Below are positions 9,562 through 41,339 of a DNA stretch of 64,000 nucleotides, in pieces; positions within the stretch are counted from its first letter, which is position 1, and each line of letters opens with the position of its first letter. The notes beneath the pieces were generated by a model, which saw only the letters and a list, made by a program, of their open reading frames with translations, searched no databases and was not told the origin of the DNA. Both the position numbers and the translations under genes were made by a program. Source of the stretch: Acutalibacteraceae bacterium (GTDB taxonomy: Bacteria > Bacillota > Clostridia > Oscillospirales > Acutalibacteraceae); contig JAZNGF010000035.1 in the NCBI GenBank assembly GCA_045576295.1, forward strand, positions 58 through 64,057, in the 5' to 3' direction.

Positions 9562-9637
9562 GCTGGTGTAGCTCAGTTGGTAGAGCAGCTGATTTGTAAT
9601 CAGCAGGTCGGGGGTTCGAGTCCGTCCACCAGCTCCA
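9562..9637 (+). tRNA. tRNA-Thr (anticodon TGT)
   Basis: Cloverleaf folded by hand: acceptor GCTGGTG/CACCAGC, D arm GCTCAGTTGGTAGAGC, anticodon arm GCTGA-TTTGTAA-TCAGC, T loop TTCGAGT, encoded CCA. Confidence 0.9.
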
Positions 9638-9656: not shown

Positions 9657-9741
9657 GGGAGAGTTCCCGAGTGGCCAAAGGGGGCAGACTGTAAATCTGT
9701 TGCGTTTCGCTTCGATGGTTCGAATCCGTCCTCTCCCACCA
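9657..9741 (+). tRNA. tRNA-Tyr (anticodon GTA), class II with long variable arm
   Basis: Acceptor GGGAGAG/CTCTCCC, anticodon loop CTGTAAA, long variable arm, T loop TTCGAAT, encoded CCA. Confidence 0.9.
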
Positions 9742-18378: not shown

Positions 18379-18632
18379 TTGAACTTTTGCCTTTAAAGTG
18401 GTATACTAACACTGCCAAACAAACTTAATAAACAGAAGCTGGGTATTTCCCCTTTGCGGGGGGTATTATGCTCTTTTTTGGTTATCTTATCGATATGAAT
18501 TTGGTAAAAACGCAAATTCCATCGGTGGGATGATCGGGTTATGATACCCCCATTCTGTTTGAGTTTGTTTGGCGACAATCGGGGTTTGCGTTTTTCGGTG
18601 CGTTCGACTTCGGTTGGCGCACTTTTTTGTTT
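18379..18632 (+). promoter_or_regulatory. Candidate structured 5' leader, copy a (promoter, nested helices, cUUCGg-loop terminator)
   Basis: Promoter: TTGAAC (18379-18384), 17-nt spacer, TGg-TATACT (18402-18407). Helices: GGGGGTATTATG 18459-18470 / TATGATACCCCC 18540-18551; ATCTTATCGAT 18484-18494 / ATCGGTGGGAT 18521-18531; GAATTTG 18497-18503 / CAAATTC 18513-18519. The terminator hairpin at 18597-18622 is followed by T6 at 18623-18628. The 3' module at 18576-18632 is nearly identical to 30564-30620 and 35104-35160. Confidence 0.6.
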
Positions 18633-18646
18633 TATGGGGTGTTTTT

Positions 18647-19102
18647 ATGACCGCAAAAAGACTAATGTTCTTGTTTTTATCCTTAACCATAATTTTATCT
18701 GCCTGCAAATATTCTAATAAAACGATTAGCGAAACCCCTGCCGAAGAGCCTGCATACGAAGTTTTTAAAATAAATATATATGCTGAATGTGTTTCAAACG
18801 ATTCGGTAGGCAATGAATGGGTTCAAGAATACTTTATGGATGGGCAAAGAATTTATAGTGGGCACCAAATAACACTGCCGTTAAATGAGCCACCCGTTTT
18901 TAAAACCATAACCGCAACTATCGAAGAGGTTGACAAGTACCCCGATATATCATCAAAAGATATATCCTTTGAAATAAAAGACGGCAAAGAAAGCCACAAA
19001 ACGGTGGTTGTTACCGAAGGCGATGGATGCCATAAAGGCCGCGAAGCAGTTTGGAATGTAAAGGTATCGGTTGAAAAATTGTTGAATGAAGAATTGCCAT
19101 AA
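18647..19102 (+). CDS. Lipoprotein of unknown function
   Basis: ATG at 18647 behind a GGGGTG RBS. Signal peptide with lipobox: MTAKRLMFLFLSLTIILSAC. The longer track ORF (18569) would read through the terminator hairpin and is unlikely. Confidence 0.7.
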   Translation: MTAKRLMFLFLSLTIILSACKYSNKTISETPAEEPAYEVFKINIYAECVSNDSVGNEWVQEYFMDGQRIYSGHQITLPLNEPPVFKTITATIEEVDKYPDISSKDISFEIKDGKESHKTVVVTEGDGCHKGREAVWNVKVSVEKLLNEELP

Positions 19103-19302: not shown

Positions 19303-20562
19303 ATGAAAGCGATTTTTGAAGGCGGAAAGGTTTATATGGGCGGCAAGTTTTCATGTGCCCCCCTTTTTGTTGATGATAAAAAAGTATCTGAGCCGATTTC
19401 AGGCGGCAGTGTTGCTATTTATAATGTTAATAATTCTATTATTGTTCCCGGCTTTACAGATGTTCATGTTCATCTGCGTGAGCCGGGCTTTTCATATAAA
19501 GAAACAATCGAAAGCGGAACGCGCGCAGCCGCTGCCGGCGGCTACACCACGGTTTGCTCTATGCCAAACCTGAACCCCGCACCTGACAGCGCTGAAGCTA
19601 TAAAACAGCAGCTTAATGCAATAAAAAAAGGCGCCGCGATTAGGGTTTACCCCTACGCTTCGATAACCAAAGGGCTGAAAGGTGAGGCTCTTTCAGATAT
19701 GGAAGAACTAGCCCCGCTTTGCATTGCCTTTACGGATGATGGCAAGGGCGTTCAAAAAAATGAAATGATGCTTGAAGCAATGAAAACCGCAAAAGCTTTA
19801 GGCAAAATGATAGTTGCCCACTGTGAAGACGAAAGCCTTTTAATCGGTGGCTGTATACACGACGGCGAGTTTGCCCGCAAAAACGGTTTCCGCGGAATAT
19901 CGAGCGAGAGCGAATGGCGCCAGGTTGAGCGCGACTTAGAGCTTGCTGCCGCCACAGGATGCAAATATCATGTTTGCCACATTTCGACGAAGGAAACGGT
20001 TGGACTTATACGCCAGGCTAAAAAATCAGGCGTTGACGTTACCTGCGAAACAGCGCCACATTACCTGATTCTTTGCGACCAAGACCTTAAAGACGAAGGC
20101 AGATTTAAAATGAACCCGCCCATTAGAAGTGAGGCTGACCGCGAAGCACTTGTTGAAGGACTGATTGACGGAACGATTGATATGATAGCAACCGATCACG
20201 CGCCACATTCGGCCGAAGAAAAGAGTAAAGGGCTTAAAGGCAGTTTAATGGGGGTTTCGGGGCTTGAATGCGCATTTGCGGCGGTTTACACAAACCTTGT
20301 TAAACCGGGTGTTTTACCGCTTGAAAGGCTGATTGATGCTATGAGCATTACCCCGCGCCGCCGATTTGGAATCCCAGGCGGCACCGAAATTGGCGACGAC
20401 GCCGATTTCACGGTTATTAATTTAGATGAATCGTTCACCGTTCGCGGAGAAGATTTTATTTCAAAAGGAAAGTTCACCCCGTTTGAAGGGCGCAAATTTT
20501 ATGGAAAAGTTAAGCTAACAGCAGTGAAAGGAGAAATAGTGTGGCAAGCCACACTACACTAA
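19303..20562 (+). CDS. pyrC: Dihydroorotase
   Basis: A 419-aa ORF with the metal-binding DVHVHLREPG, the AAAGGYTTV motif and an amidohydrolase fold signature. Confidence 0.93.
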   Translation: MKAIFEGGKVYMGGKFSCAPLFVDDKKVSEPISGGSVAIYNVNNSIIVPGFTDVHVHLREPGFSYKETIESGTRAAAAGGYTTVCSMPNLNPAPDSAEAIKQQLNAIKKGAAIRVYPYASITKGLKGEALSDMEELAPLCIAFTDDGKGVQKNEMMLEAMKTAKALGKMIVAHCEDESLLIGGCIHDGEFARKNGFRGISSESEWRQVERDLELAAATGCKYHVCHISTKETVGLIRQAKKSGVDVTCETAPHYLILCDQDLKDEGRFKMNPPIRSEADREALVEGLIDGTIDMIATDHAPHSAEEKSKGLKGSLMGVSGLECAFAAVYTNLVKPGVLPLERLIDAMSITPRRRFGIPGGTEIGDDADFTVINLDESFTVRGEDFISKGKFTPFEGRKFYGKVKLTAVKGEIVWQATLH

Positions 20563-20612
20563 ATTTAAAAGCCGTGCCGTTCCTACCATTGTCGAACCAC
20601 GGCACACGGCGA

Positions 20613-20644
20613 AAATCTCCAACGCGCCGCTAATGGAGATTTTT
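20613..20644 (+). terminator. Possible internal attenuator/terminator between pyrC and carA
   Basis: AAATCTCCA-acgcgccgcta-ATGGAGATTTTT. The stem is short and only four or five U follow, so this is weak. Confidence 0.35.
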
Positions 20645-20689
20645 ATGTGCCACATACATTGATATTTTAGCGGCAGATAGGAGATTAAT

Positions 20690-21787
20690 ATGGCAGACAA
20701 AATAAACAGGAAATTAGTTTTAGAAGACGGCAGCGAATTCTATGGCACAGGCTTTGGTGATATGGGAGAACGCGTTTTTGAAATCGTTTTCAACACCTCT
20801 ATGGCAGGGTATCAAGAAATAGTATCCGACCCATCATACACAGGCCAGGGCCTTGTTATGACCTACCCGCTTATTGGCACATACGGCATAACCGACGACG
20901 ACTTTGAAAGCAAAGATATAACAATAAGCGCGCTTATCGTTAGCGAATATAACGACACTCCTTCAAACTTCCGCTACACCAAAACACTATCGGAAACACT
21001 TGAAGAAAGCCACATCCCCGGCATTCAAGGGTTCGACACAAGGATGTTAGCCAAAAAGATACGCGACAACGGAAGCTGCCGCGCAATTATAACCGATTCG
21101 TTCGTTAAAACAGAAGACGCCCTTGCAAAGATAGCCAAGGCACCCCAAAACAACAACCTTGCCGAAAAGGTTAGCTGCAAAAAGCGCTGGTATTCAAGAA
21201 CACCTAACCACAAGCTTAATGTGGTTGCGGTTGACTGCGGAATTAAACTTAGCTTCATAAAAGCGCTCAACGCTGAGCACTGCAACGTTACAATAGTTCC
21301 CTTTGGCACCACTGCCGAAGAAATTGAACTTATGAAACCCGATGGCGTGTTTATTTCAAACGGCCCCGGAAACCCGAAAGATGCCGCTGCGGTTTGCGAA
21401 CTTATTAAAGGCATTCGCGGTAAATACCCAATCTTCGGCACAGGCCTTGGCCACCAGCTTATAGGGCTTGCCTTCGGCGGCGACACATTTAAACTAAAGC
21501 CCGGCCACCGCGGCAGCACCCACGCTGTTAAAAATGTTATAACCGGCAAGTTTGATAACCCCGCGCAAAACCATGGCTACGCCGTAGATGAAGAATCACT
21601 TAAAGGCACCGGCCTTACAGTTACACACATAAACCTGTTTGATAAAACGGTTGAAGGAATGATGAACGAAGAAGAACGCATTTACAGTGTTCAGTTCCAC
21701 CCCGAAACCGCATCAGGCACAGGAGAAAGCTCACTTTTATTTAACAAATTTATTAAAGCAATGATGGAGGCGAAGAAGAATGCCTAA
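20690..21787 (+). CDS. carA: Carbamoyl-phosphate synthase small (glutaminase) subunit
   Basis: A 365-aa ORF with GATase class I motifs (GHQL variant of the GICLGHQ motif, and HPE near the C-terminus). Confidence 0.95.
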
Positions 21788-24700
21788 GCGCACAGATATT
21801 AAAAAAGTAATGGTAATAGGCTCTGGCCCTATCGTAATCGGCCAGGCAGCAGAATTCGACTATGCGGGAACACAGGCCTGCTTAGCACTTAAAGAGGAAG
21901 GCTATGAGGTTGTTCTTGTTAACTCAAACCCTGCAACAATAATGACCGACAAAGCAATTGCCGACAAGATTTATATGGAGCCGTTAACCCTTGAATATGT
22001 TGCAAAGATTATCCGCCGCGAGCGCCCCGATGCAATTGTTCCCGGCATTGGCGGCCAAACAGGCCTTAACCTTGCAATGCAACTTGAAAAGAAGGGTATT
22101 CTTGAAGAATGCCAGGTTGAACTGCTTGGAACCAGCAGCGACAGCATCGACTGCGCTGAAGACAGAGAACGCTTTAAAAACCTTTGCGAAGATTTAGGTG
22201 AGCCTGTTTTACCTTCAATCACATCGCACTCAATTGAAGAATGCTTTGAAGCCGCAAGAAAGATTGGCTTCCCCGTTGTTTTGCGCCCTGCCTTCACCCT
22301 TGGCGGAACAGGCGGCGGCTTTGCCGAAAACGAAGAAGAACTCTATGAGCTTGCTAAAAACGCACTTCGCCTTTCACCCGTAAGCGAAGTTTTGGTTGAA
22401 AAGAGCATTAAAGGCTATAAAGAAATTGAGTACGAAGTAATGCGCGACGCTAACGACACCGCCATTGCAATATGCAATATGGAAAATATCGACCCTGTTG
22501 GAATTCACACAGGCGACTCGGTTGTTGTTTGCCCTTGCCAAACACTTACCCACAAGGAATGCGCATTCCTTCGCGAGAGCGCACTTAAAATCATCCGCGC
22601 ACTTAAAATCGAGGGTGGCTGCAACGTTCAGTTCGCGCTTGACCCGCAATCGTTCGATTATTTCCTTATTGAGGTTAACCCCCGAGTTTCGCGTTCATCG
22701 GCGCTCGCATCAAAGGCAAGTGGCTACCCCATTGCAAGGGTTACCGCAAAGGTTGCCGTTGGAATGACACTTGATGAAATTATGCTTTCCAACACACCTG
22801 CCGCATTTGAACCAACACTTGACTATGTTGTTACCAAAATGCCCCGCTTCCCCTTTGATAAGTTTGTTGATGCAAACAACAGCCTTTCAACCCAGATGAA
22901 GGCAACAGGCGAAGTTATGGCAATTGGCCGCAGCATTGAAGAAAGCCTTCTTAAAGCCGTTCGCTCGCTTGAAATCGGCGTTTGCCACCTTTATATGAAG
23001 AAGTTCGATTCATACACCGAAGATGAACTTTTACAGTATATCCGCACCGGAACCGACGACCGTTTTTATGCGATTGCAGAGCTTTTCCGCCGCGGAACCG
23101 ACATTGGCCGAGTTTGCGATGCAACACAGATTGATATGTTCTTCCTTGAAAAACTTCGCCACATCACCGAGCTTGAAAACGAAGGTAAACAGAACCCGAT
23201 GGATGCCGAAACACTTAAAAAGCTTAAAAAATACGGTTTTTCTGACAAGTATATAGCCCAGCTTTGGAATGTTAGCGAGCTTGACGTTTGGAACTTCAGA
23301 AGAGAAAGCGGCATAACACCTGTTTACAAAATGATTGACACCTGCGCCGGCGAATTCAAAAGCTACACCCCATACTTCTATTCAACCTATGAAACCGAAA
23401 ACGAGCTTCAAATATCAGATAAGAAAAAAATTATCGTTTTAGGTTCGGGCCCCATCAGAATAGGCCAGGGCGTTGAGTTCGACTATTCAACAGTTCACGC
23501 AGTTATGACCATCAAGCAGATGGGCTGCGAAGCTATAATCATCAATAACAACCCCGAAACCGTATCAACCGACTACACCTGTTCTGATAAATTATATTTC
23601 GAGCCGCTCACTGTAGAAGATGTTATGAACATCATTGAGCTTGAAAAGCCCTATGGCGTTATTGCATCACTTGGCGGACAAACCGCAATTAACCTTGCAG
23701 AACCGCTTATGAACCGCGGCGTTAACATTATTGGCACAGGTGTTGAAGCTATCGACCGCGCCGAAAACCGCGACAGCTTTGAAAAACTTCTAAGCGAACT
23801 CGGAATCCCACAGCCACCCGGCCGCGCCGTTACAACAATTGAAGACGGCGTTAAAGCCGCTGCTGATATTGGCTACCCTGTTCTTGTTCGCCCAAGCTTT
23901 GTTCTTGGCGGACGCGCTATGCAGATTGTTGCAAACGAAGAAATGCTTCGCCACTACCTTAAAACTGCGGTTGAAATCGATGCTGATCGCCCCGTTCTTG
24001 TTGACAGATATATTTCGGGTAAAGAGGTTGAAATCGACGCCGTTTGCGACGGAACCGACGTTTTCGCACCCGGTATTATGGAACTTGTTGAGCGCACTGG
24101 CGTTCACTCGGGCGACTCGATAAGCGTTTATCCAACCTTCAGCATTTCACAAAAGGTTAAAGATACTATTCTTGACTACACCAAGAAATTAGGCCTTGGA
24201 ATTGGCATTGTTGGCCTATTCAACATTCAGTTTATTGTTGATGCAAACGAAGATGTTTACGTAATCGAAGTAAACCCGCGTTCTTCAAGAACCGTTCCAT
24301 TCCTTTCAAAATCAACAGGCTACAACCTTGCCGACATTGGAACACTTGTAATTTTAGGCCATTCACTTAAAGACCAGGGCTTCACAACATCTTACCCCGA
24401 AGAAAAGCCAAGATGGTATGTTAAAACTCCTGCCTTCTCGTTCTCGAAACTTCGCGGGCTTGATGCCTACCTTTCACCCGAAATGAAATCAACAGGTGAA
24501 GCTATAGGTTACGACGACAGCATGACCCGCGCGCTTTACAAATCACTTCGTGCATCGGGTATGAGCGTTGTGAACTACGGCACAGTGCTTGTAACCATCA
24601 ACGATAGCGACAAAGAGGAAGCACTTCCCCTTATTAAGCGTTTTTATGATATGGGCTTTAACATTGAAGCCACAAGCGGCACAGCCCAGTTCTTAAAAGA

Positions 24701-24953
24701 GCACGGCATTCGCACAAGAATTCGCAAGAAGATAAGCGAAGGCAGTGAAGAAATTTTAGATTCTATCCGCCAAGGCTATGTAAGCTATGTTATCAACACG
24801 CGTGATGTTAACTCTTCGGGCGTACTGTCAGACGGGTATGAAATTCGCCGCTGCGCCTGCGAAAACAACATCACCACCTTTACTTCACTCGACACTGTAA
24901 AGGCGCTCTTAGATGTTCTTGAAGAAACAACAATGAAGGTTTCGGAAATTTAG
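21780..24953 (+). CDS. carB: Carbamoyl-phosphate synthase large subunit
   Basis: A 1057-aa ORF with duplicated ATP-grasp halves ([20 protein letters not shown] and [20 protein letters not shown]) and a C-terminal MGS-like domain. It overlaps carA by 8 nt. Confidence 0.97.
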
Positions 24954-24977
24954 TTTTTCGGCTGAATGGAGATTATA

Positions 24978-25718
24978 ATGAAACAAGAATTTTTTACGGT
25001 TGAATCAACAAGATTCCTTGCTAAAAACACCTTTGAAACGGTGCTTGCAGGCAATACCGACGGCATAAGGCCCGGGCAGTTTGTTAACATTATGCTATCT
25101 GGCAAATACCTGCGCCGCCCCATTTCGGTTTGTAATTCTGAGGCAGGAAAGCTCACTATTGTTTACAAAACCGTGGGAGATGGCACCAAGGCTTTAAGCG
25201 AAGTAAAAATCGGCGAAAAGCTCGATTTATTAACACAACTTGGAAATGGATACGATTTAAGTACTAGCGGAGATACCCCCCTGCTTATCGGCGGAGGGGT
25301 TGGCATACCGCCGCTTTATATGCTTTGCAAGGAACTTTTAAAAAAGGGCGTTACACCCAGCGTTATTTTAGGTTTTAATTCTGCCGATGAGGTTTTTTAT
25401 GAAGAAGAATTCTCGGCTCTTGGAGTTCACGTTTACATCGCAACGGCCGACGGCAGCCGTGGAACAAAAGGTTTTGTTACCGATGTTATGAAAAACCTTA
25501 ATTATTCATACTTTTACACCTGTGGGCCAATGCCTATGTTTAGGGCAATAAATGCAGTTGCCACAACCGAAGGGCAGTTAAGCTTTGAAGAGCGAATGGG
25601 CTGCGGCTTTGGCGCATGCATGGGCTGCAGCTGCAAAACACTAACAGGCAATAAGCGCATTTGCCGCGAAGGCCCCGTTATGAAAAGGAGCGAGATAATA
25701 TGGCAGACACAAGAGTAA
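24978..25718 (+). CDS. pyrK: Dihydroorotate dehydrogenase B electron-transfer subunit
   Basis: FAD/NAD-binding fold (RRPISV) and a C-terminal 2Fe-2S cysteine cluster (CGFGACMGCSC...C). ATG 24978 is preferred over 24966 because of the GGAGA RBS. Confidence 0.88.
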   Translation: MKQEFFTVESTRFLAKNTFETVLAGNTDGIRPGQFVNIMLSGKYLRRPISVCNSEAGKLTIVYKTVGDGTKALSEVKIGEKLDLLTQLGNGYDLSTSGDTPLLIGGGVGIPPLYMLCKELLKKGVTPSVILGFNSADEVFYEEEFSALGVHVYIATADGSRGTKGFVTDVMKNLNYSYFYTCGPMPMFRAINAVATTEGQLSFEERMGCGFGACMGCSCKTLTGNKRICREGPVMKRSEIIWQTQE

Positions 25719-26611
25719 CCCTTGGCGGCATCGAACTGCAAAACCCTGTTATCCCCGCGAGCGGAACCTTTGGCTACGGGCGCGAGTTTGTCGAGCTTTA
25801 CGATATTAGCATTTTAGGCTCAATCTCACTTAAGGGAACAACACTTGAGCCGCGCTTTGGCAACCCAACACCCAGAATTGCCGAATGCCCAAACGGAATG
25901 CTTAACAGCGTTGGGCTTCAAAACCCCGGAATTGAAGCGGTTTTACGCGATGAAATTCCAAACCTTAAAAAGATTTACGGAAAACCCGTTGTGCTTAATG
26001 TTGGCGGCTTTAGCGAAGAAGAATTTGCAAAGGTTTGCGCCGCAGCCGACAAGGAAGACAGCATTGGCATAATTGAACTTAACATAAGCTGCCCCAACCT
26101 TCACGCAGGCGGCAAAAACTTCGGCGTTTCGGCCGAGGGCGCAACCCGCGCAACCCGCGCAGCAAAATCGGCAACAAGCAAACCCGTTTTTGTAAAGCTC
26201 ACCCCCAATGTTACCGACATAACCGAAATCGCCGTTGCCTGTGAAGAGGCAGGGGCCGATGGCATCAGCCTTATAAACACACTGCTTGGAATGAGAATTG
26301 ACCTTAAAACCAACAAGCCTGTGCTTTATAACAAAATGGGCGGTTTTTCAGGCCCTGCAATACTTCCTGTTGCACTTCGCATGGTTTACCAGGTTTATGA
26401 AGCGGTTAAAATCCCGATTATCGGCATGGGCGGCGTTTCTACTGCGGCCGATGTTATCGAAATGATGTTAGCAGGCGCCACCGCAGTTCAGGTAGGGGCT
26501 GCAAACCTTGTGAACCCCTTTGCCTGCCGCGATATTATAAACGACCTGCCCCACACTATGGAGCAGTATGGAATAAACAGTTTAACTGAAATTATAGGAG
26601 GAGCACACTAA
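25700..26611 (+). CDS. pyrD: Dihydroorotate dehydrogenase B catalytic subunit
   Basis: ATG at 25700 behind AAGGAG. Class 1 DHODH motifs are present (NPVIPASGTFGYG, NISCPN). Confidence 0.93.
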   Translation: MADTRVTLGGIELQNPVIPASGTFGYGREFVELYDISILGSISLKGTTLEPRFGNPTPRIAECPNGMLNSVGLQNPGIEAVLRDEIPNLKKIYGKPVVLNVGGFSEEEFAKVCAAADKEDSIGIIELNISCPNLHAGGKNFGVSAEGATRATRAAKSATSKPVFVKLTPNVTDITEIAVACEEAGADGISLINTLLGMRIDLKTNKPVLYNKMGGFSGPAILPVALRMVYQVYEAVKIPIIGMGGVSTAADVIEMMLAGATAVQVGAANLVNPFACRDIINDLPHTMEQYGINSLTEIIGGAH

Positions 26612-26612
26612 T

Positions 26613-27311
26613 ATGGGAAAAGACGTTATGATAGCTTGCGACTTTTCGAGCGCAAAAGAAACTATCGAATTTTTAGACAAGTTTACAGGCAGAAAGCCTT
26701 TTGTTAAAATCGGAATGGAGCTTTTTTATGCCGAAGGCCCCGAAATCATTAAACAGATTAAAAGCCGCGGCCACAAAATATTTTTAGATTTAAAACTTCA
26801 CGATATACCGAACACCGTTAAAAAAGCAATGAACGTTTTATCGAAGCTCGATGTTGATATGTGCAACCTTCACGCCGCAGGAACATCGGCTATGATGAAG
26901 GCAGCAATTGAGGGCTTAACAAGAGAAGACGGCACCCGCCCCCTGCTTGTTGCTGTTACACAGCTTACTTCAACCGATGAAGCACGTATGCAAAACGAAC
27001 TTCTTATTAACGAAACAATGGAAAACACCGTTGTGAAATATGCGCAGAACGCAAAAGCATCGGGCCTTGACGGCGTTGTTTGCTCACCGCTTGAAGCAGG
27101 CCTTGTTCACGAAAACTGTGGCAAAGGATTTGTAACCGTAACCCCCGGAATTCGCTTCGCGGGGGACAGCGTTGGCGATCAGTCGCGCATTACAACCCCA
27201 TTAAAGGCAAAAGAAATCGGCTCTGACTATATTGTTGTTGGCCGTTCTATTACCGCAGCAGAAGACCCGGTTGCTGCATACAACCGCTGTGTTGAAGAAT
27301 TTATTGACTAA
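26613..27311 (+). CDS. pyrF: Orotidine-5'-phosphate decarboxylase
   Basis: A 232-aa ORF with the DLKLHDIPNT motif. Confidence 0.94.
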   Translation: MGKDVMIACDFSSAKETIEFLDKFTGRKPFVKIGMELFYAEGPEIIKQIKSRGHKIFLDLKLHDIPNTVKKAMNVLSKLDVDMCNLHAAGTSAMMKAAIEGLTREDGTRPLLVAVTQLTSTDEARMQNELLINETMENTVVKYAQNAKASGLDGVVCSPLEAGLVHENCGKGFVTVTPGIRFAGDSVGDQSRITTPLKAKEIGSDYIVVGRSITAAEDPVAAYNRCVEEFID

Positions 27312-27332
27312 TTAAAACATAAGGAGAAAGTT

Positions 27333-27980
27333 ATGAACGGAAATGTTAAAACACTCATAGCAAAAGACTTACTTTCAATCAAGGCTGTATTTTTAAGCCC
27401 TAACGAACCCTTCACATGGGCAAGCGGCATTAAAAGCCCCATTTACTGCGATAACCGCTTAACACTTACAGCGCCCGAGGTTAGAAACGACATTGAAAAC
27501 GCACTTGCAGAATCGGTGAAGGCTAACTTCCCCGAATGCGAAGTTCTTATGGGAACATCAACTGCAGGTATTGCTCACGCCGCTATCACAGGCCACATTT
27601 TAGGGCTTCCTATGGGCTATGTTCGCGGTTCAAGCAAAGATCACGGCCGCCAGAACAGAATTGAAGGCAGGCTTGAAAAGGGCCAAAAGGTTGTTGTTGT
27701 TGAAGACCTTATTTCAACAGGCGGCAGCGTTATCGACGTTGTTGAAGCGCTTCGCGAAGCAGGCGCCGAGGTTCTTGGCATTGTTAGCATCTTCACCTAT
27801 GGCATGAAAAAAGGACTTGAAAGGCTTGCAGCCGCTAATGTTACAAACTACAGCTTAACCGATTTCGACGAAATCGTTGCAGTTGCCGCCGCTGAAGGCT
27901 ACATTGAAGAAGGCGACACCGCAAGGCTTAAGGCATTCCGCGACAACCCGTCTGACGAGTCGTGGATAGGTGGCAAATAA
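27333..27980 (+). CDS. pyrE: Orotate phosphoribosyltransferase
   Basis: A 215-aa ORF with the PRPP-binding motif [13 protein letters not shown]. Confidence 0.93.
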
Positions 27981-28894
27981 TGAGAAGCCTTATAGACATT
28001 AGGGAGCTTTCGGCTGAAGAGATTAACAGCCTTATAGACTGCGCTAAAGATATTATCGCAAACCCCGAAAAATACAGCGAAAAATGCAAGGGTAAAAAGC
28101 TGGCATCGCTGTTTTTTGAACCGTCAACCAGAACCCGCCTTAGCTTTGAGGCGGCTATGTATGAGCTTGGCGGCAATGTTCTTGGCTTTTCAGAAGCAAT
28201 GAGCAGCTCTGCCGCAAAGGGCGAAAGCGTTGCCGACACGGCTAAAACAGTTAGCTGTTACGCCGATATTATTGCAATGCGCCACCCGAAAGAGGGCGCT
28301 CCGCTTGTGGCTTCGATGAACGCATCAATCCCCGTTATAAACGCGGGCGACGGCGGCCACAACCACCCAACCCAAACCCTTGCCGACCTTTGCACAATAA
28401 GCCTTGAAAAAGGCAGGCTACACGACCTAAAGGTGGGCTTCTGCGGTGACTTAAAGTTTGGCCGCACAGTTCATTCGCTAATTTCGGCCCTTTCAAGGTA
28501 CACAGGAATTAAGGTTTACCTTATTTCGCCCGAAGAACTTAAACTGCCAAGCTATATTAAAAACGGCGTGCTTCAAAAATGCGGCATTGAATACGTTCAA
28601 ACAACCGATTTAGACAGTGTTATCGGCGAGCTTGACATTTTATATATGACAAGGGTTCAGCGCGAACGCTTCTTCAGCGAAGAGGAATATTTGCGCCTTA
28701 AAGACAGTTACATTTTAACCGAAGAAAAACTTTTAGGCGCGAAGGAAGACCTTTGCATTATGCATCCGCTGCCGCGCGTTAACGAAATTTCGGTTGGAAT
28801 TGACAACGATAAAAGGGCTTGCTACTTTAAGCAGGTGCTTTACGGCAAGTATATGAGAATGGCGCTTATTATGATGCTTTTGGGGGTGGAATAA
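27980..28894 (+). CDS. pyrB: Aspartate carbamoyltransferase catalytic subunit
   Basis: The ATG overlaps the pyrE stop (TAATG). Motifs: [24 protein letters not shown]. Confidence 0.94.
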
Positions 28895-29326
28895 TTGAAC
28901 ATTGACTCAATTAAAAACGGCATAGTTATCGACCATATTACTGCAGGCCGCGGAATGGAGATTTACAGGCTTTTGAATTTAGAAGAGCTTGACTGCCCCG
29001 TTGCCATAATCAAAAATGTGTTGAGCGCCAAGGCAGGAAAAAAAGATATTATCAAGATCGACAGTGAGATGCCGATTGATTTTAACCTGTTAGGCTATGT
29101 TGACCCAGGCATCACAGTTAACATTATTAAAGATTCAAAGGTTGCCGAAAAGGTGCACCCAACCCTTCCAACAAGGCTCACAGGGGTTTTAAAATGCAAA
29201 AACCCCCGTTGCATTACCTCAACCGAGCAGGAGCTGCAACAGATTTTCTATCTTGACGACAGCAACAACGCAATTTACCGTTGCCTATACTGCGAATCTA
29301 AAAGCGATAAAATGTTTAATAAATAA
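28895..29326 (+). CDS. pyrI: Aspartate carbamoyltransferase regulatory subunit
   Basis: A 143-aa ORF with a TTG start directly after the pyrB stop. It has the C-terminal zinc motif CKNPRC...CLYC. Confidence 0.88.
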   Translation: MNIDSIKNGIVIDHITAGRGMEIYRLLNLEELDCPVAIIKNVLSAKAGKKDIIKIDSEMPIDFNLLGYVDPGITVNIIKDSKVAEKVHPTLPTRLTGVLKCKNPRCITSTEQELQQIFYLDDSNNAIYRCLYCESKSDKMFNK

Positions 29327-29563: not shown

Positions 29564-30034
29564 ATGACATTACGAGAACTTAGAAAAATCAAAGGGATAA
29601 CACAGCAAGAAGCCGCAGATTATGTAGGGGTGCCATTAAGGACTTACTCTAATTATGAAAACGATCCTCAAAAGCAGTCCAGCATTAAATATAAGTATAT
29701 AATGGAAAAACTATATACCCACGGATATATCGATGAAGAAAACGGGGTGCTGACATTAGAAGAGATCAAAAAGACCTGTGTAAATATTCTTTCCAAATAT
29801 CCTGTTGAATATTGCTATTTGTTTGGGTCATACGCAAAGGGCAACGCAAAACCATCAAGTGATGTGGATTTACTAATCCACACCACTCTTTCAGGATTAA
29901 AGTTCTACGGTTTGGTTGAAGAACTGCGCGAACAGTTGAAGAAAAAGGTTGATGTGCTTGACCAAAAACAAATAATGGGTAACTTTGAACTTACAAATGA
30001 AATACTGAAGGATGGCGTAAAGATTTATGGATAA
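29564..30034 (+). CDS. mntA: MntA-type nucleotidyltransferase antitoxin with fused N-terminal XRE HTH domain
   Basis: The N-terminus is an HTH (LRELRKIKGITQQEAADYVGVPLRTYSNYE). The C-terminus carries the minimal NTase motif (LFGSYAKGNAKPSSDVDLLI). It overlaps the downstream DUF86 gene by 8 nt. Confidence 0.8.
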   Translation: MTLRELRKIKGITQQEAADYVGVPLRTYSNYENDPQKQSSIKYKYIMEKLYTHGYIDEENGVLTLEEIKKTCVNILSKYPVEYCYLFGSYAKGNAKPSSDVDLLIHTTLSGLKFYGLVEELREQLKKKVDVLDQKQIMGNFELTNEILKDGVKIYG

Positions 30035-30362
30035 TATAAAAAATGACGCTTACTATATTAAGAAAATGCTAAAGGACATTAAGTTTATTATAAATAACAC
30101 AAAGGGAATAACACTTGACGAGCTTGAAGCAAACGAGGTGCTGTGCGACTCTGTTCTTTTTCGTTTGATACAAATCTCTGAAAACTCAGTGAAACTTACC
30201 CCTGATTTTAAGGCAAGGCACAACGATATTCCTTGGCAGGCCATCAAGGGTATGAGAAACAAAATTGTTCACGAATACGGCGATGTTGAGTTTGATATTG
30301 TTCATCAAACAGTTACAGAGGATATACCCGAAATTTGTAAGAAGCTTGACAGTCTTGTGTGA
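30027..30362 (+). CDS. hepT: HepT-type (DUF86) RNase toxin
   Basis: A 111-aa ORF with the Rx4HxY motif (RNKIVHEY), paired with the NTase gene. Confidence 0.85.
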   Translation: MDNIKNDAYYIKKMLKDIKFIINNTKGITLDELEANEVLCDSVLFRLIQISENSVKLTPDFKARHNDIPWQAIKGMRNKIVHEYGDVEFDIVHQTVTEDIPEICKKLDSLV

Positions 30363-30419: not shown

Positions 30420-30620
30420 TTGTAAAAGCGTTAAAAGTGTGATAAAATAAACTCACCACACAAATCATTATAGGCGTATTACAAGAGAATGTTTTTTGTT
30501 TCGGCAAAAACACATTCTCCGCTTGTGCATTCCTTGTGATATGCCAAAAGATTTGTGTGGTAACAATCTGGAGCTATGTGTTTTTCGGTGCGTAGCTTCG
30601 GTTGCGCACTTTTTTGTTTT
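30420..30620 (+). promoter_or_regulatory. Candidate structured 5' leader, copy b (promoter, nested helices, cUUCGg-loop terminator)
   Basis: Promoter: TTGTAA (30420-30425), 17-nt spacer, TGtgaTAAAAT (30443-30448). Helices: P1 30456-30466/30550-30560; P2 30473-30484/30534-30545; P3 30485-30498/30505-30519. The terminator hairpin at 30587-30609 is followed by T6 at 30610-30615. Confidence 0.65.
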
Positions 30621-30633
30621 TACGAGGTATTAA

Positions 30634-34719: not shown

Positions 34720-34740
34720 TTAAACTGAATACACGTATAG

Positions 34741-34777
34741 TCAAGGCATTTCACTGTGTGGAGTGCCTTGATTTTTT
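34741..34777 (+). terminator. Intrinsic terminator after the ABC pair
   Basis: TCAAGGCATT...AGTGCCTTGA followed by T6. Confidence 0.8.
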
Positions 34778-34800: not shown

Positions 34801-34897
34801 GGGGCGGATGCCCTCATCCGCCCGTGCAGAGCTATGCTTTTGAATTCCCCTTGTATATCACATTAATTGCCCGCGGGACGATGTGGGCATCGTCCCC
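34801..34897. repeat. Pair of inverted, homologous GC-rich hairpins (REP/MITE-like)
   Basis: GGGGCGGATG-ccctc-ATCCGCCCG (34801-34824) and, in opposite orientation, CGGGACGATG-tgggc-ATCGTCCCC (34874-34897), separated by about 49 nt. Confidence 0.6.
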
Positions 34898-34958: not shown

Positions 34959-35160
34959 TTGTAAAGTGATGAAAAATGTGGTAAACTAATCTTGCGACGT
35001 AACTTCATTTGAATATTACCCAGTCGAGAGGTGCATTTTACTAAGGTAAAAATGCATACTCTTTTTCGTGCATTCTTGATTGGGTGCTGAAGTTGCGTCG
35101 CAGCAATTGGAGTTATGCGTTTTTCGGTGCGCTTAACTTCGGTTGGCGCACTTTTTTGTT
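34959..35160 (+). promoter_or_regulatory. Candidate structured 5' leader, copy c (promoter, nested helices, cUUCGg-loop terminator)
   Basis: Promoter: TTGTAA (34959-34964), 17-nt spacer, TAAACT (34982-34987). Helices: P1 34993-35007/35088-35102; P2 35018-35028/35075-35085; P3 about 35033-35041/35046-35055. The terminator hairpin at 35126-35151 is followed by T6 at 35152-35157. Confidence 0.65.
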
Positions 35161-35175
35161 TAAGAGGTTATTTTG

Positions 35176-35418
35176 ATGTTGGAATATGAAGAAATGCACA
35201 AAAACTTTTGCACAAATTTAAAGGATATGCGCAAGCAAATGCAAATGACACAAGAAGATTTTGCAAGGTTTATTGGCATTGGGCGCACATTATATACTAA
35301 ATATGAAACGTGTGCGGCAACACCCACATTTATAAAACTGCTCAAAATAATATCTGCTTTAAATGTATCAGCAGATTTTTTGTTCGGAATAAAAGCCAAC
35401 GATAATATAGATAAATAA
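35176..35418 (+). CDS. Small XRE-family HTH regulator (80 aa), paralog of 30634-30867
   Basis: ATG at 35176 behind an AGAGG RBS. HTH sequence LKDMRKQMQMTQEDFARFIGIGRTLYTKYET and tail DFLFGIKANDN. Confidence 0.85.
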   Translation: MLEYEEMHKNFCTNLKDMRKQMQMTQEDFARFIGIGRTLYTKYETCAATPTFIKLLKIISALNVSADFLFGIKANDNIDK

Positions 35419-39547: not shown

Positions 39548-39579
39548 GTACTAAATATGTATTATGAGGTGGTATTGCT

Positions 39580-40254
39580 ATGTATACTTGTTCAAAATGT
39601 AATTTTAAAACCGAAACTGCTATAAATTATTGCCCGCAGTGCGGCGGCGGAATGTTGTTTGTTAAACCTATGGTTCAAAAGCCGGCTGAACCCACCTTCG
39701 CGCAGCCTGTACAGCAAAATGTTCAACCACCTGTTCAGCCACAGCCTGCAAATCAAGCATACACTACACAAAGCGCACCCGCTGAGCCTATGCATAATCA
39801 ATATAATACACAGGGTTATAGCCAGCCCACCGCGCAATTTCAGGCTGAACCTACATACGCACCGCCTTCTGCGCCGCAACAAAATCAATACAACGCATAT
39901 AATTCGCATAATTATTCGGCTCAAAACAATAATTTCTACCAGCCCGTTAACGAGCCAAAGGTTTCGGTGGGCCGCAAAATCGCCGGCATGGTTCTTTCGA
40001 TTATCGGTGCTGCTTTCGCGTTCTTTACCTTCATTGGCACATTAGATTCAATGGGCTACGAAGATGCATTCGACGGCGCCTTTATTTTAACACTTTTATT
40101 CGGCGCGCTTCCTATTATTGGGCTTGTGCTTTCAAACAAATGCCGAAACGACGGCGACACATCGCCCATTTCCAAGGTTGGTAAAATCCTTGGCATAGTG
40201 GGCCTTGCGTTGTTTGGTTTAAGCCTGTTCTTTGGTTTTGTTAGTTTAGCCTAA
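39580..40254 (+). CDS. Zinc-ribbon membrane protein, paralog 1 (long Q/P-rich linker)
   Basis: N-terminal CxxC-x13-CxxC (MYTCSKCNF...NYCPQCGG), a Q/P/A/Y-rich low-complexity linker, and about 3 TM helices with the conserved LSNKCRNDGD loop. Confidence 0.8.
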   Translation: MYTCSKCNFKTETAINYCPQCGGGMLFVKPMVQKPAEPTFAQPVQQNVQPPVQPQPANQAYTTQSAPAEPMHNQYNTQGYSQPTAQFQAEPTYAPPSAPQQNQYNAYNSHNYSAQNNNFYQPVNEPKVSVGRKIAGMVLSIIGAAFAFFTFIGTLDSMGYEDAFDGAFILTLLFGALPIIGLVLSNKCRNDGDTSPISKVGKILGIVGLALFGLSLFFGFVSLA

Positions 40255-40313
40255 TACGCTTGATTGGTTTAATTTATTTAATTGAATTTAGAATTTAAAA
40301 AGGTGGAATTATT

Positions 40314-40838
40314 ATGTATACTTGTTCAAAATGTGATTTTAAAACTGAAACCGCTATAAATTATTGCCCCGAGTGCGGCGGCACAATGGTTTATGTTCAG
40401 CCAGCAGCGCAGCAATCGGCCGAACCCACCTATGCACCGCCCACTTACTCGCAACCTGCTTACACACAGCATAGTTCTAACACCTATGCACCTTATCAAG
40501 ATGTGTATACTACACCCACCGCACCCAAAAAACCGCACTTAGCATTTAAAATTGTTTCAATGGCTTTATCTATTGGCGGCTTTGTTCTTGCTCTTGTTAC
40601 TTTCTTTTACACACTTTTCGGCCTAATTGAGCCACCCGTTGCGTTTGTTTTTTCATTTATTTTTTCAATTTTCTATTCGCCGCTTTCGATTGTTGGCCTT
40701 ATTCTTTCAAACAAATGCCAAAACGCAGGCGATAACTCGGCCTTTTCGAAGGTTGGCAAAATTTTAGGGCTTATTGGCGTTATTATTTATGGCGTTAGCC
40801 TGTTTATCGGCGTTATGTCGCTTGGTGCAGGTTTTTAA
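40314..40838 (+). CDS. Zinc-ribbon membrane protein, paralog 2
   Basis: Same architecture. The 5' end is nearly identical to paralog 1, and the 3' end is nearly identical to paralog 3. Confidence 0.8.
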   Translation: MYTCSKCDFKTETAINYCPECGGTMVYVQPAAQQSAEPTYAPPTYSQPAYTQHSSNTYAPYQDVYTTPTAPKKPHLAFKIVSMALSIGGFVLALVTFFYTLFGLIEPPVAFVFSFIFSIFYSPLSIVGLILSNKCQNAGDNSAFSKVGKILGLIGVIIYGVSLFIGVMSLGAGF

Positions 40839-40856
40839 TTCAAATTTATAGTTTTG
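40721..40856 (+). repeat. Direct repeat unit A (3' end of paralog 2 plus 18 nt of downstream flank)
   Basis: Aligns without gaps to 41222-41357. I count 4 mismatches in 136 nt. Confidence 0.9.
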
Positions 40857-40895
40857 GTTAGTTAAATAAAGCACTTCTCGAAAGGGGCAACTACT

Positions 40896-41339
40896 GTGTA
40901 TACTTGTTCAAAATGCGGTTTTACAAACAATTCTGAATTGAATTTTTGCCCCATGTGCGGAGCACAGGTTGTTTCGAAACAAAACACGACCGAGCAACCT
41001 ATTGAGTCGGCAAGTGGCACTACCGTTAAAAAGCCGCATCTTGCATTTAAAATTATCTCAATGGTTTTATCTATTGAGGGTTTTTATGCAGCTTATGTAA
41101 CCTTAATATTAACACTTGTGGGCCTTATTCAACAGCCGTTTTCTTTCGAATTTTCAGTTGGTTTTTCGTTATTCTATGCGCCACTTTCGGTTGTTGGACT
41201 TATATTTTCAAATAAATGCCGAAACGCAGGCGATAACTTAGCCTTTTCGAAGGTTGGCAAAATTTTAGGGCTTATTGGCATTATTCTTTATGGCGTTAGC
41301 CTGTTTATCGGCGTTATGTCGCTTGGTGCAGGTTTTTAA
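40896..41339 (+). CDS. Zinc-ribbon membrane protein, paralog 3 (GTG start, short linker)
   Basis: MYTCSKCGF...NFCPMCG and the same C-terminal TM module ending GVMSLGAGF. Confidence 0.78.
   Translation: MYTCSKCGFTNNSELNFCPMCGAQVVSKQNTTEQPIESASGTTVKKPHLAFKIISMVLSIEGFYAAYVTLILTLVGLIQQPFSFEFSVGFSLFYAPLSVVGLIFSNKCRNAGDNLAFSKVGKILGLIGIILYGVSLFIGVMSLGAGF

Follow-up and report, generated by a model that had tools for sequence, protein, structure and literature searches.

The window analysed here is a stretch of 64,000 nucleotides (nt) from an Acutalibacteraceae bacterium (assembly GCA_045576295.1, contig JAZNGF010000035.1, positions 58 to 64,057 of the forward strand), numbered from its first letter. 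At 34959-35175 of the forward strand it contains a promoter, a leader made up largely of helices and an intrinsic terminator, followed at once by a small gene of the XRE type. A direct-repeat search and a pattern search found the conserved 3' module of this leader exactly three times in the window, near 18590, 30580 and 35120. The three leaders are called copies a, b and c, and copy c is the subject of this analysis. It is probably a cis-acting transcription attenuator and one member of a large, apparently undescribed family of leader RNAs in gut Clostridia.

The promoter of copy c (34959-34987, read from the sequence) consists of a -35 hexamer TTGTAA at 34959-34964, a 17-nt spacer and a -10 hexamer TAAACT at 34982-34987, just as an earlier note on this DNA had described it. 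The two hexamers agree with the consensus at 8 of 12 positions, and the spacer carries an extended -10 TG at 34979-34980. Transcription would start at about 34993-34994. A simple consensus scanner called neither this promoter nor the terminator of copy c; the terminator was probably missed because its stem contains a one-base bulge.

The presumed 5' end of the transcript is already base-paired. P1, which is supported by folding and covariation, joins UGCGACGUAACUUCA (34993-35007) to UGAAGUUGCGUCGCA (35088-35102) in a helix of 15 base pairs (bp), one of them G-U. It encloses an asymmetric internal loop with 10 nt on its 5' side (UUUGAAUAUU, 35008-35017, including an unpaired AAUA that is conserved in the family) and only GC on its 3' side (35086-35087). 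P2 follows, with ACCCAGUCGAG (35018-35028) paired to 35075-35085 through a helix that includes two G-U pairs. Its sequence is variable in the family, and every homolog that was folded has a long hairpin of unrelated sequence in this region. Both helices had been proposed in the earlier note, and both are borne out by sequence and fold. P3 (35033-35055), also proposed there, can form between GCAUUUUAC and GUAAAAAUGC as 9 bp with one bulged A.

The apex of the hairpin holds two further segments. The first, termed X' (35029-35047), comprises the 5' strand of P2'/P3 (AGGUGCAUUUUAC), a loop UAAG and a conserved GG. The second, termed Y (AAAAAUGCAUACUCU, 35048-35062), is rich in A. After Y comes a stretch (35063-35085), assigned by folding and covariation, with a U-run (UUUUCG), the 3' strand of P2' (GUGCAUUC, 35068-35075) and the 3' strand of P2 (35075-35085). 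Below P1, a linker GCAAUU (35103-35108) with a family-conserved unpaired C-A-A leads to the switching strand X (GGAGUUAUGCGUUUUU, 35109-35124).

Two complementarities were overlooked when the leader was first read. The apical segment 35048-35062 is complementary to 35109-35124, and a second complement of the latter is found in the terminator (its 5' half and its loop). This makes the element a three-way switch. Y can pair locally with X', a mimic of X, by means of its A-run as part of P3. Alternatively, it can pair with X, about 60 nt away, giving a 15-bp long-range helix of AAAAAUGCAUACUCU with GGAGUUAUGCGUUUUU that would act as an anti-antiterminator. X can pair with Y, or it can pair with the terminator strand to form the antiterminator hairpin H2 (35104-35145), in which CAAUUGGAGUUA pairs with UAACUUCGGUUG and GCGU with GCGC around an 8-nt loop, UUUUCGGU. 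The terminator itself (35126-35161) pairs GGUGCGCUUAAC with GUUGGCGCACU below a UUCG tetraloop (35138-35141) and ends in UUUUUUGUUU. The sequence CAAU-UGGAG-UAUG, which had been taken for a linker, is accordingly not a passive one, since either the apical segment or the terminator can be its partner.

If the 5' and 3' halves of the terminator stem are written T5 and T3, the pairings form a chain, X':Y, Y:X, X:T5 and T5:T3. Attenuators classically work by such a chain, and confidence in it as a structural scheme is high. The chain also resembles the 1:2, 2:3 and 3:4 helices of the trp leader, and a 12-codon open reading frame (ORF) begins at 35052 in copy c, which raises the question of a leader-peptide attenuator controlled by ribosomes, as in trp or pyrBI. 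An ORF of at least 6 codons preceded by a Shine-Dalgarno (SD) sequence was found in just 20 of 97 leaders of the family, at scattered positions, and copy b has none. A ribosome-mediated mechanism is for this reason rejected as scarcely credible.

The U-tract of copy c runs almost directly into its gene. The SD sequence AAGAGG lies at 35162-35167, the ATG start codon at 35176 (with a possible TTG start at 35173) and the stop codon at 35416-35418, according to the ORF list, so that SD and gene together occupy 35162-35418 of the forward strand. The product belongs to the Pfam family HTH_3 (E 1e-11), and the XRE proteins behind copies b and c are 47% identical. A separate promoter would not fit between the U-tract and the SD sequence. 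The locus shows three structural features of a generic attenuator: a GC-rich hairpin with a U-tract directly before an ORF, a conserved alternative hairpin (H2) and a third helix (Y:X) that sequesters one strand of it.

The mechanism proposed for copy c is as follows. A strong promoter of the sigma-A type would start the RNA at about 34993. The first 110 nt or so would fold into a long hairpin (P1, the asymmetric AAUA loop, P2 and P2'/P3) whose apex displays Y, and X would then have its two mutually exclusive partners. In the OFF state, X would be held by Y in the 15-bp long-range anti-antiterminator, the UUCG-capped terminator would form and transcription would stop at about 35157, ahead of the XRE gene. 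In the ON state, Y would be kept in its local hairpin with X', or blocked in some other way; X would join the 5' half and loop of the terminator as H2, and the polymerase would enter the gene. An effector might stabilise a compact fold that is bent at the AAUA loop (or, in the longer leaders described below as class 1, at a three-way junction), so that Y reaches X and the genes are turned off. That the effector stabilises the OFF state is a committed guess, made by analogy with the S-box and PyrR anti-antiterminators, which are stabilised by a ligand or a protein. The analysis supports the helices, their mutual exclusivity, their covariation and the near-equal energies of the two states; the start site, termination itself and the direction of control are inferred. 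Regulation by the leader in response to a signal can be proposed with moderate confidence.

Folding energies were used to examine both the leader and its two states. The earlier note had suggested a comparison with shuffled sequences, and copy c folds far better than they do. Its 176-nt leader has an energy of -69.8 kcal/mol, compared to -41.9 +/- 4.1 kcal/mol for dinucleotide shuffles (z -6.85), and none of 200 shuffled sequences did as well. The corresponding z values are -7.5 for copy b and -9.7 for copy a. H2 is the minimum free energy form (RNAfold) in all three copies of the window, its energies in copies c, b and a being -18.5, -16.2 and -16.2 kcal/mol, versus -13.9, -15.2 and -13.7 kcal/mol for the terminators; H2 of copy c alone has a z of -6.3. 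The 5' strand of H2 is also transcribed ahead of the terminator.

The OFF state is a pseudoknot, because Y:X crosses P1 and P2. Its energy was calculated by pairing Y with X and refolding the remaining RNA with the terminator, and that of the ON state as the hairpin plus H2. OFF minus ON amounts to -9.5 +/- 5.6 kcal/mol, a figure that includes no pseudoknot or steric penalty, and on the same basis OFF is lower in 95% of leaders. Once a typical pseudoknot penalty is applied, the two states would be roughly balanced, as expected of a switch.

Homologs of copy c were collected with the exact 23-base pattern TTTTTCGGTGCG-N(2-10)-CTTCGG-N(2-6)-CGCAC, for which about one chance occurrence was estimated, in a scan of one genome per species. 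At least 120 loci were found, all in metagenome-assembled genomes (MAGs) of uncultured Clostridia from the guts of animals and humans and labelled, among others, as Oscillospiraceae, Acutalibacteraceae, Ruminococcaceae, Faecousia and Christensenellaceae. Leader ends were set by complementarity to the 3' strand of P1, as earlier minimum free energy folds of 420-nt flanks had been too noisy. A covariance model, R1, was built from 39 leaders of the short class. In the window it recovers the three copies, at 140.6 (copy b), 131.3 and 77.5 bits (copy a), and nothing else credible. With a cutoff of E<1e-6, its hits overall number 108, from 100 sources. Five of these are additional copies that lack the exact pattern, having an altered tetraloop or one altered base of the U-run while keeping the base of the stem, GGUGCG/CGCAC.

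Members of the family share a common order of parts. A near-consensus promoter, TTTACAAA-N-TGTGaTATAAT, lies 6-7 nt before the first base of P1, as in copy c. P1 itself has the consensus UGCNACACAA paired with UUGUGUNGCA and is followed by the AAUA loop, the variable P2, the Y motif GGUAAAAAYGCA..CUC(C), the 3' strand of P1, the CAA linker and X. The latter reads GGAGyUaUGCRUUUUU in the family and precedes a loop CGG, the UUCG-capped terminator, the U-tract, and an SD sequence with its start codon. At least three subclasses can be recognized. Leaders of class 1, which include copy a, are about 215-230 nt long and have an extra sub-hairpin, giving a three-way junction, with Y in a hairpin loop. 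Those of class 2, including copies b and c, are about 160-190 nt long. The third subclass has a terminator of the GGGAA/UUCC type. All three keep the Y:X pairing with differing sequences, for instance CGCAAAUUCC with GGAGUUUGCG, or GGUGUUUUCC with GGGAAACAC(C).

This wider comparison also corrects the relationship between copies b and c. They do share the same plan, as had been claimed, and copy a shares it as well. Their paired sequences are not completely different, however, since P1 follows the family consensus and the P3 region carries a motif found throughout the family, UUUUAC..GGUAAAAAYGCA. The junction GTGCATTC is indeed present in both copies (35068-35075 and 30525-30532), but it is not a conserved single strand: it is the 3' strand of P2', in which all seven pairs covary. 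The comparison of two paralogs could not separate the conserved parts from the variable ones.

Evidence that the helices are kept by compensatory change comes from three alignments: one of class 2 (39 sequences, including copies b and c), one of class 1 (41 sequences, including copy a) and a covariance-model alignment of 108 sequences. In class 2, 96% of the cells of P1 are paired and 6 of its 11 pairs show changes on both sides; in class 1 the values are 94.6% and 8 of 14. For the long-range helix Y:X they are 92.6% and 8 of 15 in class 2, and 96.1% and 7 of 15 in class 1. When the 3' partners are shifted by 1-3 columns, pairing falls to 32-56%. Across 96 leaders, cognate Y:X duplexes have a mean energy of -16.4 kcal/mol, versus -12.8 kcal/mol for non-cognate ones, and none of 5000 permutations was as good.

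P2' is 82% paired, with two-sided changes in 7 of 7 pairs, and P3 is 88% paired. More generally, the local pairing of Y with the mimic of X (P3/P2' in class 2, P4 in class 1) is 80-88% paired and covaries. In the terminator stem, 99% of cells are paired and the upper part covaries to some extent. H2 is paired over its full length in 87.7% of cells in class 2 and 96.7% in class 1, and its core in 91% among the 108 homologs. Covariation in H2 is limited and falls at positions that the search pattern leaves free; column pair 302:329, for example, is UA in 33 sequences, UG in 32, CG in 24 and GC in 8. Variation in X consists almost entirely of transitions (78:16 and 24:4). This fits a strand whose transitions keep wobble pairing with a near-invariant terminator strand while Y compensates. 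A few unpaired columns are also conserved: A-U-A of the internal loop is near-invariant, and C, A and A of the linker are invariant or near-invariant, in both the class 1 and class 2 alignments.

Compensatory changes in P1, P2', the terminator and the long-range helix, seen among 39-108 homologs, thus uphold the earlier view of a functional structured RNA rather than a recent DNA duplication, and conservation among homologs reaches well beyond the terminator module. An element acting as DNA, such as a recently duplicated or mobile inverted-repeat cassette resembling a miniature inverted-repeat transposable element or an integron attC site and having no RNA function, would account for long inverted repeats that are conserved at their ends and variable between them, for the multiple copies per genome and for the same leader in differing gene contexts. 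It is very improbable, as the G-U wobbles, the U-tract, the promoter and the fixed orientation to the gene all indicate RNA, and the covariation includes a long-range helix that is not palindromic.

The attC comparison was pursued to the level of single bases and rejected. The ends of P1 (UGCGACG../..CGUCGCA in copy c, GCCAAAC/GUUUGGC in copy a) do not correspond to the integron core sites RYYYAAC and GTTRRRY, GCCAAAC failing the first and GUUUGGC the second, each at its fourth base. The copies of the window lie among housekeeping genes and no integrase is present. An origin in phages was rejected too, with the pattern matching a single viral contig among the 2.9 million of IMG/VR.

The genes behind the leaders were examined for the kind of signal that might be involved. 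The 125 pattern matches (those of the window and of the loci together) mostly have an SD sequence and a start codon no more than about 15-30 nt beyond the U-tract. This leaves no space for a second promoter, so downstream expression depends on read-through. Among 104 downstream proteins, Pfam families include BspA-type leucine-rich repeat (LRR) proteins (9), AMP-binding (5), HTH_3 (4), zinc-ribbon (4), DUF6809 (3), SHOCT (3), SLOG/DprA-like (3), SLH (2) and AbrB/MazE-like proteins (2). Most of the 104 have no Pfam family, among them many lipoproteins, including the one in the window, and a recurrent Cys-rich peptide of 55-70 amino acids (aa).

The commonest downstream gene encodes a Cys-rich protein of 52-120 aa with the motif VCLGNGEQGFECCCDECDYYLLCFPE. 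It is the first ORF after the leader at loci L003, L010, L034, L035, L036, L038, L053, L079, L089, L103 and L117. The Pfam summary shows no family for it, and NCBIfam has none for the Cys-rich peptide (two members tested), the lipoprotein of the window or the small protein of locus L039. The last of these is probably among the three DUF6809 proteins. Overall, the regulon is a mixed one in which surface proteins abound. It points to no particular ligand; it suggests a global signal, or one like a second messenger, and argues against a riboswitch specific for one metabolite.

Three to four diverged paralogs stand in tandem at 39565-41330 of the window. Each opens with a zinc-ribbon motif (MYTCSKCNFKTE...CPQCG), and the repeats are 64-88% identical. 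In other genomes, zinc-ribbon proteins are also among the genes behind leaders.

Sensing of pyrimidines or UTP was considered for the family, given its U-runs and the nearby pyr genes, and was dropped because the genes downstream of its members are not pyrimidine genes. The pyr genes in question lie between leaders a and b, at 19303-29326, and were named by eye from their translations as pyrC, carA, carB, pyrB and pyrI.

Several loci carry two leaders in tandem on the same strand, about 90-170 nt apart. These are L010 (2159-2383 and 2481-2707), L038 (3702-3922 and 4016-4232), L003 (1838-2054 and 2225-2438), L084 (6730-6893 and 7028-7196) and L061 (4155-4319 and 4409-4601). Such pairs resemble tandem riboswitches. 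For L010 and L038, some 300 nt separate the two pattern matches, and the first copy has no called ORF after it.

Units without an ORF directly behind them, such as the leading copy of the pair in L010 and in L038, would be at home in a different explanation. The unit might be mainly an independent small RNA (sRNA) gene, acting in trans or sequestering a protein like 6S or CsrB, with alternative helices that serve the folding or maturation of the sRNA and with incidental read-through into the gene downstream. Each unit does have its own near-consensus promoter and a strong terminator, several copies are present per genome, and one and the same leader can stand before unrelated genes (leader b and its 90.6% identical relative at L051, described below). 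The position of the start codons in most of the 125 matches makes read-through a necessity, however, and a helix such as H2 that competes exactly with the terminator would be needless for an sRNA. A role mainly as an sRNA is for these reasons unlikely, though the two roles could coexist in one element.

The family was compared with known RNAs in several ways. A scan of the window with the 4227 covariance models of Rfam 15 at gathering thresholds gave no match for the family and only three ordinary hits, a ribosomal protein L10 leader at 960-1105 of the reverse strand (86.8 bits) and two tRNAs at 9562-9634 and 9657-9738 of the forward strand. Permissive scans of copies a, b and c (E<=10) gave only hits at the level of chance, far below threshold. 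Literature searches with sequence strings of the conserved module and the apical motif returned chance matches only, and keyword searches for RNA motifs of Ruminococcaceae and Oscillospiraceae returned nothing relevant; unnamed candidates may exist in large metagenomic screens. A paper on noncoding RNAs in 50 bacterial genomes mentions neither these taxa nor these genes. As far as could be found, then, these leader RNAs of 160-230 nt are apparently undescribed. The element is genuine and the family new in that sense; its mechanism is of a known kind, with an unusual long-range anti-antiterminator.

The closest parallels in logic are the S-box (SAM-I) leaders and the pyr leaders regulated by PyrR. 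They too have three mutually exclusive helices, an upstream helix that sequesters the 5' strand of the antiterminator, a terminator just before the SD sequence, and two states that are nearly isoenergetic. The anti-antiterminator differs. In the S-box and pyr leaders this part falls to the helix that closes a compact aptamer or to a hairpin bound by protein, whereas in the family of copy c it falls to a 15-bp pseudoknot that joins the apex of a hairpin to the strand after its base. The family also has no SAM-I core, no PyrR binding motif and no Rfam hit, and its regulon is not metabolic. For PyrR leaders in particular, Rfam gives no hit in the window or in copy a, the one with pyrC and carAB downstream of it, and most members of the family are not beside pyr genes.

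M-box (Mg2+) and ZTP riboswitches resemble the model proposed for copy c in another respect. They are turned off by compaction or by a long-range pseudoknot that hides the antiterminator strand, and the spacing between the partners is of variable length. There is no similarity in sequence or covariance model according to Rfam, their conserved cores are absent from the family and the gene associations differ. The c-di-GMP-I and c-di-GMP-II riboswitches of Clostridia likewise have many copies, some in tandem, and a heterogeneous regulon of surface, adhesin, secreted and small regulatory proteins. Here the likeness is confined to the kind of genes controlled, as Rfam detects no similarity in structure or sequence. 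For the T-box, Rfam has no hit at E<=10 in copies a, b and c, and H2 with its 8-nt loop (UUUUCGGU) lacks a UGGN bulge.

A further parallel is found in the repC leader of pT181 and the repR leader of pIP501, in which a preemptor helix competes with a terminator and the decision is set by whether an upstream segment is free or occupied. Those systems control plasmid copy number by a countertranscript, whereas the family of copy c is chromosomal, with many members per genome before diverse genes, and no antisense promoter was found. Attenuation driven by an RNA in trans, such as a countertranscript in the style of pT181 or pIP501, a chromosomal sRNA or a tRNA that binds the apical loop or X, would follow the same logic as pT181 repC (preemptor versus terminator), and the conserved A-run, U-run, GGAG and CUCC might give it shared binding sites. 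Against this, the only promoter-like match on the minus strand, at 34985-34958, points away from leader c (a weak negative, from a simple scan), and the Rfam T-box model is unmatched. In addition, the variable parts of Y and X covary within each leader, which would limit a shared trans RNA to the short conserved runs. Control of this kind is quite improbable.

Several points weigh against the attenuator model for copy c. The OFF pseudoknot would require the apex and the base of a hairpin of 25-30 bp to meet. The asymmetric AAUA loop, or the three-way junction in class 1, could supply the necessary bend. Conservation of the terminator module is partly a matter of construction, because the pattern used to collect homologs fixes UUUUUCGGUGCG..CUUCGG..CGCAC; for the same reason few columns of H2 are free to covary, and only the five extra copies are independent of the pattern. 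The shuffle controls overstate significance because the sequences are related to one another, and the control with slid partners is the safer one. Finally, conserved unpaired nucleotides are few (AAUA, GG and CAA), unlike in most small-molecule aptamers.

The last point, together with the fact that no effector has been identified, would also suit a constitutive structured 5' untranslated region. The 5' hairpin would shield the mRNA from RNase J or RNase Y, the leaky terminator would fix the level of expression and no switching by a signal would take place; the inclusion of the presumed 5' end in P1 is in line with this. A stabiliser, on the other hand, needs neither a 15-bp long-range helix with compensatory changes nor a strand with two partners and two near-isoenergetic states, and such a role for the leader is doubtful at best.

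The attenuator model can be taken further, in a form that is tentative and falls somewhat short of an even chance. The family may be a new and abundant orphan class of riboswitch-like elements in gut Clostridia of the Oscillospirales type. A global signal (such as a second messenger, an ion or a dedicated RNA-binding protein) would dock the apex onto the strand after the base as a pseudoknot anti-antiterminator, so co-regulating dozens of genes for surface proteins, secreted proteins and small regulators per genome, with promoter and leader together being reused as a portable cassette before unrelated genes.

If attenuation by these leaders is real, many genes of uncultured Clostridia abundant in the guts of ruminants, rabbits and humans are controlled by a single RNA family. 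Their products would be LRR and SLH proteins of the surface, lipoproteins, small proteins rich in Cys and regulators of the XRE and AbrB types, and a regulon and its signal would be defined in organisms that are nearly without experimental genetics. The architecture would be an unusual one for an attenuator, its anti-antiterminator being a pseudoknot of a hairpin apex with the 3' flank of that hairpin. For annotators, covariance model R1 is a clean marker of the family. The family also lends itself to testing how covariation analysis performs on whole expression platforms, as its switching strand evolves under two pairing constraints.

The other two leaders of the window follow the plan of copy c. 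Copy b, of class 2, occupies 30420-30621 of the forward strand, with its promoter at 30420-30448 and the leader proper at 30454-30621. P1 pairs 30455-30466 with 30550-30561, Y lies at 30506-30520, X at 30570-30585 and the terminator at 30588-30609. In the long-range helix, AAAAACACAU..CUCC pairs with GGAG..AUGUGUUUUU.

Leader b with its -10 region (30440-30619) is 90.6% identical to positions 1628-1808 of locus L051, from a MAG of an uncultured Ruminococcus sp., while the flanks cannot be aligned and the gene downstream in L051 is an unrelated ORF of 45 aa. Between the two there is a compensatory difference: Y has ACACAU in copy b and AUGCAU in L051, and X has AUGUGU and AUGCGU, respectively. 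The promoter and leader together seem to have been reused as a portable cassette. The stretch 29564-30362, immediately before leader b, holds two overlapping ORFs whose products, judged by eye, resemble a helix-turn-helix nucleotidyltransferase and a HEPN/DUF86 protein, and so a toxin-antitoxin pair.

Copy a, of class 1, occupies 18379-18634 of the forward strand, with its leader at 18413-18634, and precedes a lipoprotein gene at 18647-19102. It has the extra sub-hairpin and the three-way junction of its class. Y (18506-18520) and X (18581-18595) form a 15-bp duplex of AAAAACGCAAAUUCC with GGGGUUUGCGUUUUU at -19.3 kcal/mol. Leaders of class 1 also contain an internal hairpin GGG...(A/U)UAUACCC (18441-18480 in copy a) followed by a run of 5-7 U, which looks like a weak internal terminator or a pause site.

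Upstream of copy c, between the terminator of an ABC-transporter operon (34739-34773) and the promoter of the leader, lie two related GC-rich perfect hairpins 73 nt apart, GGGCGGAUG-CCCU-CAUCCGCCC at 34802-34823 and GGGACGAUG-UGGG-CAUCGUCCC at 34875-34896. They have no U-tract, and this pair is the only occurrence of such hairpins in the window.

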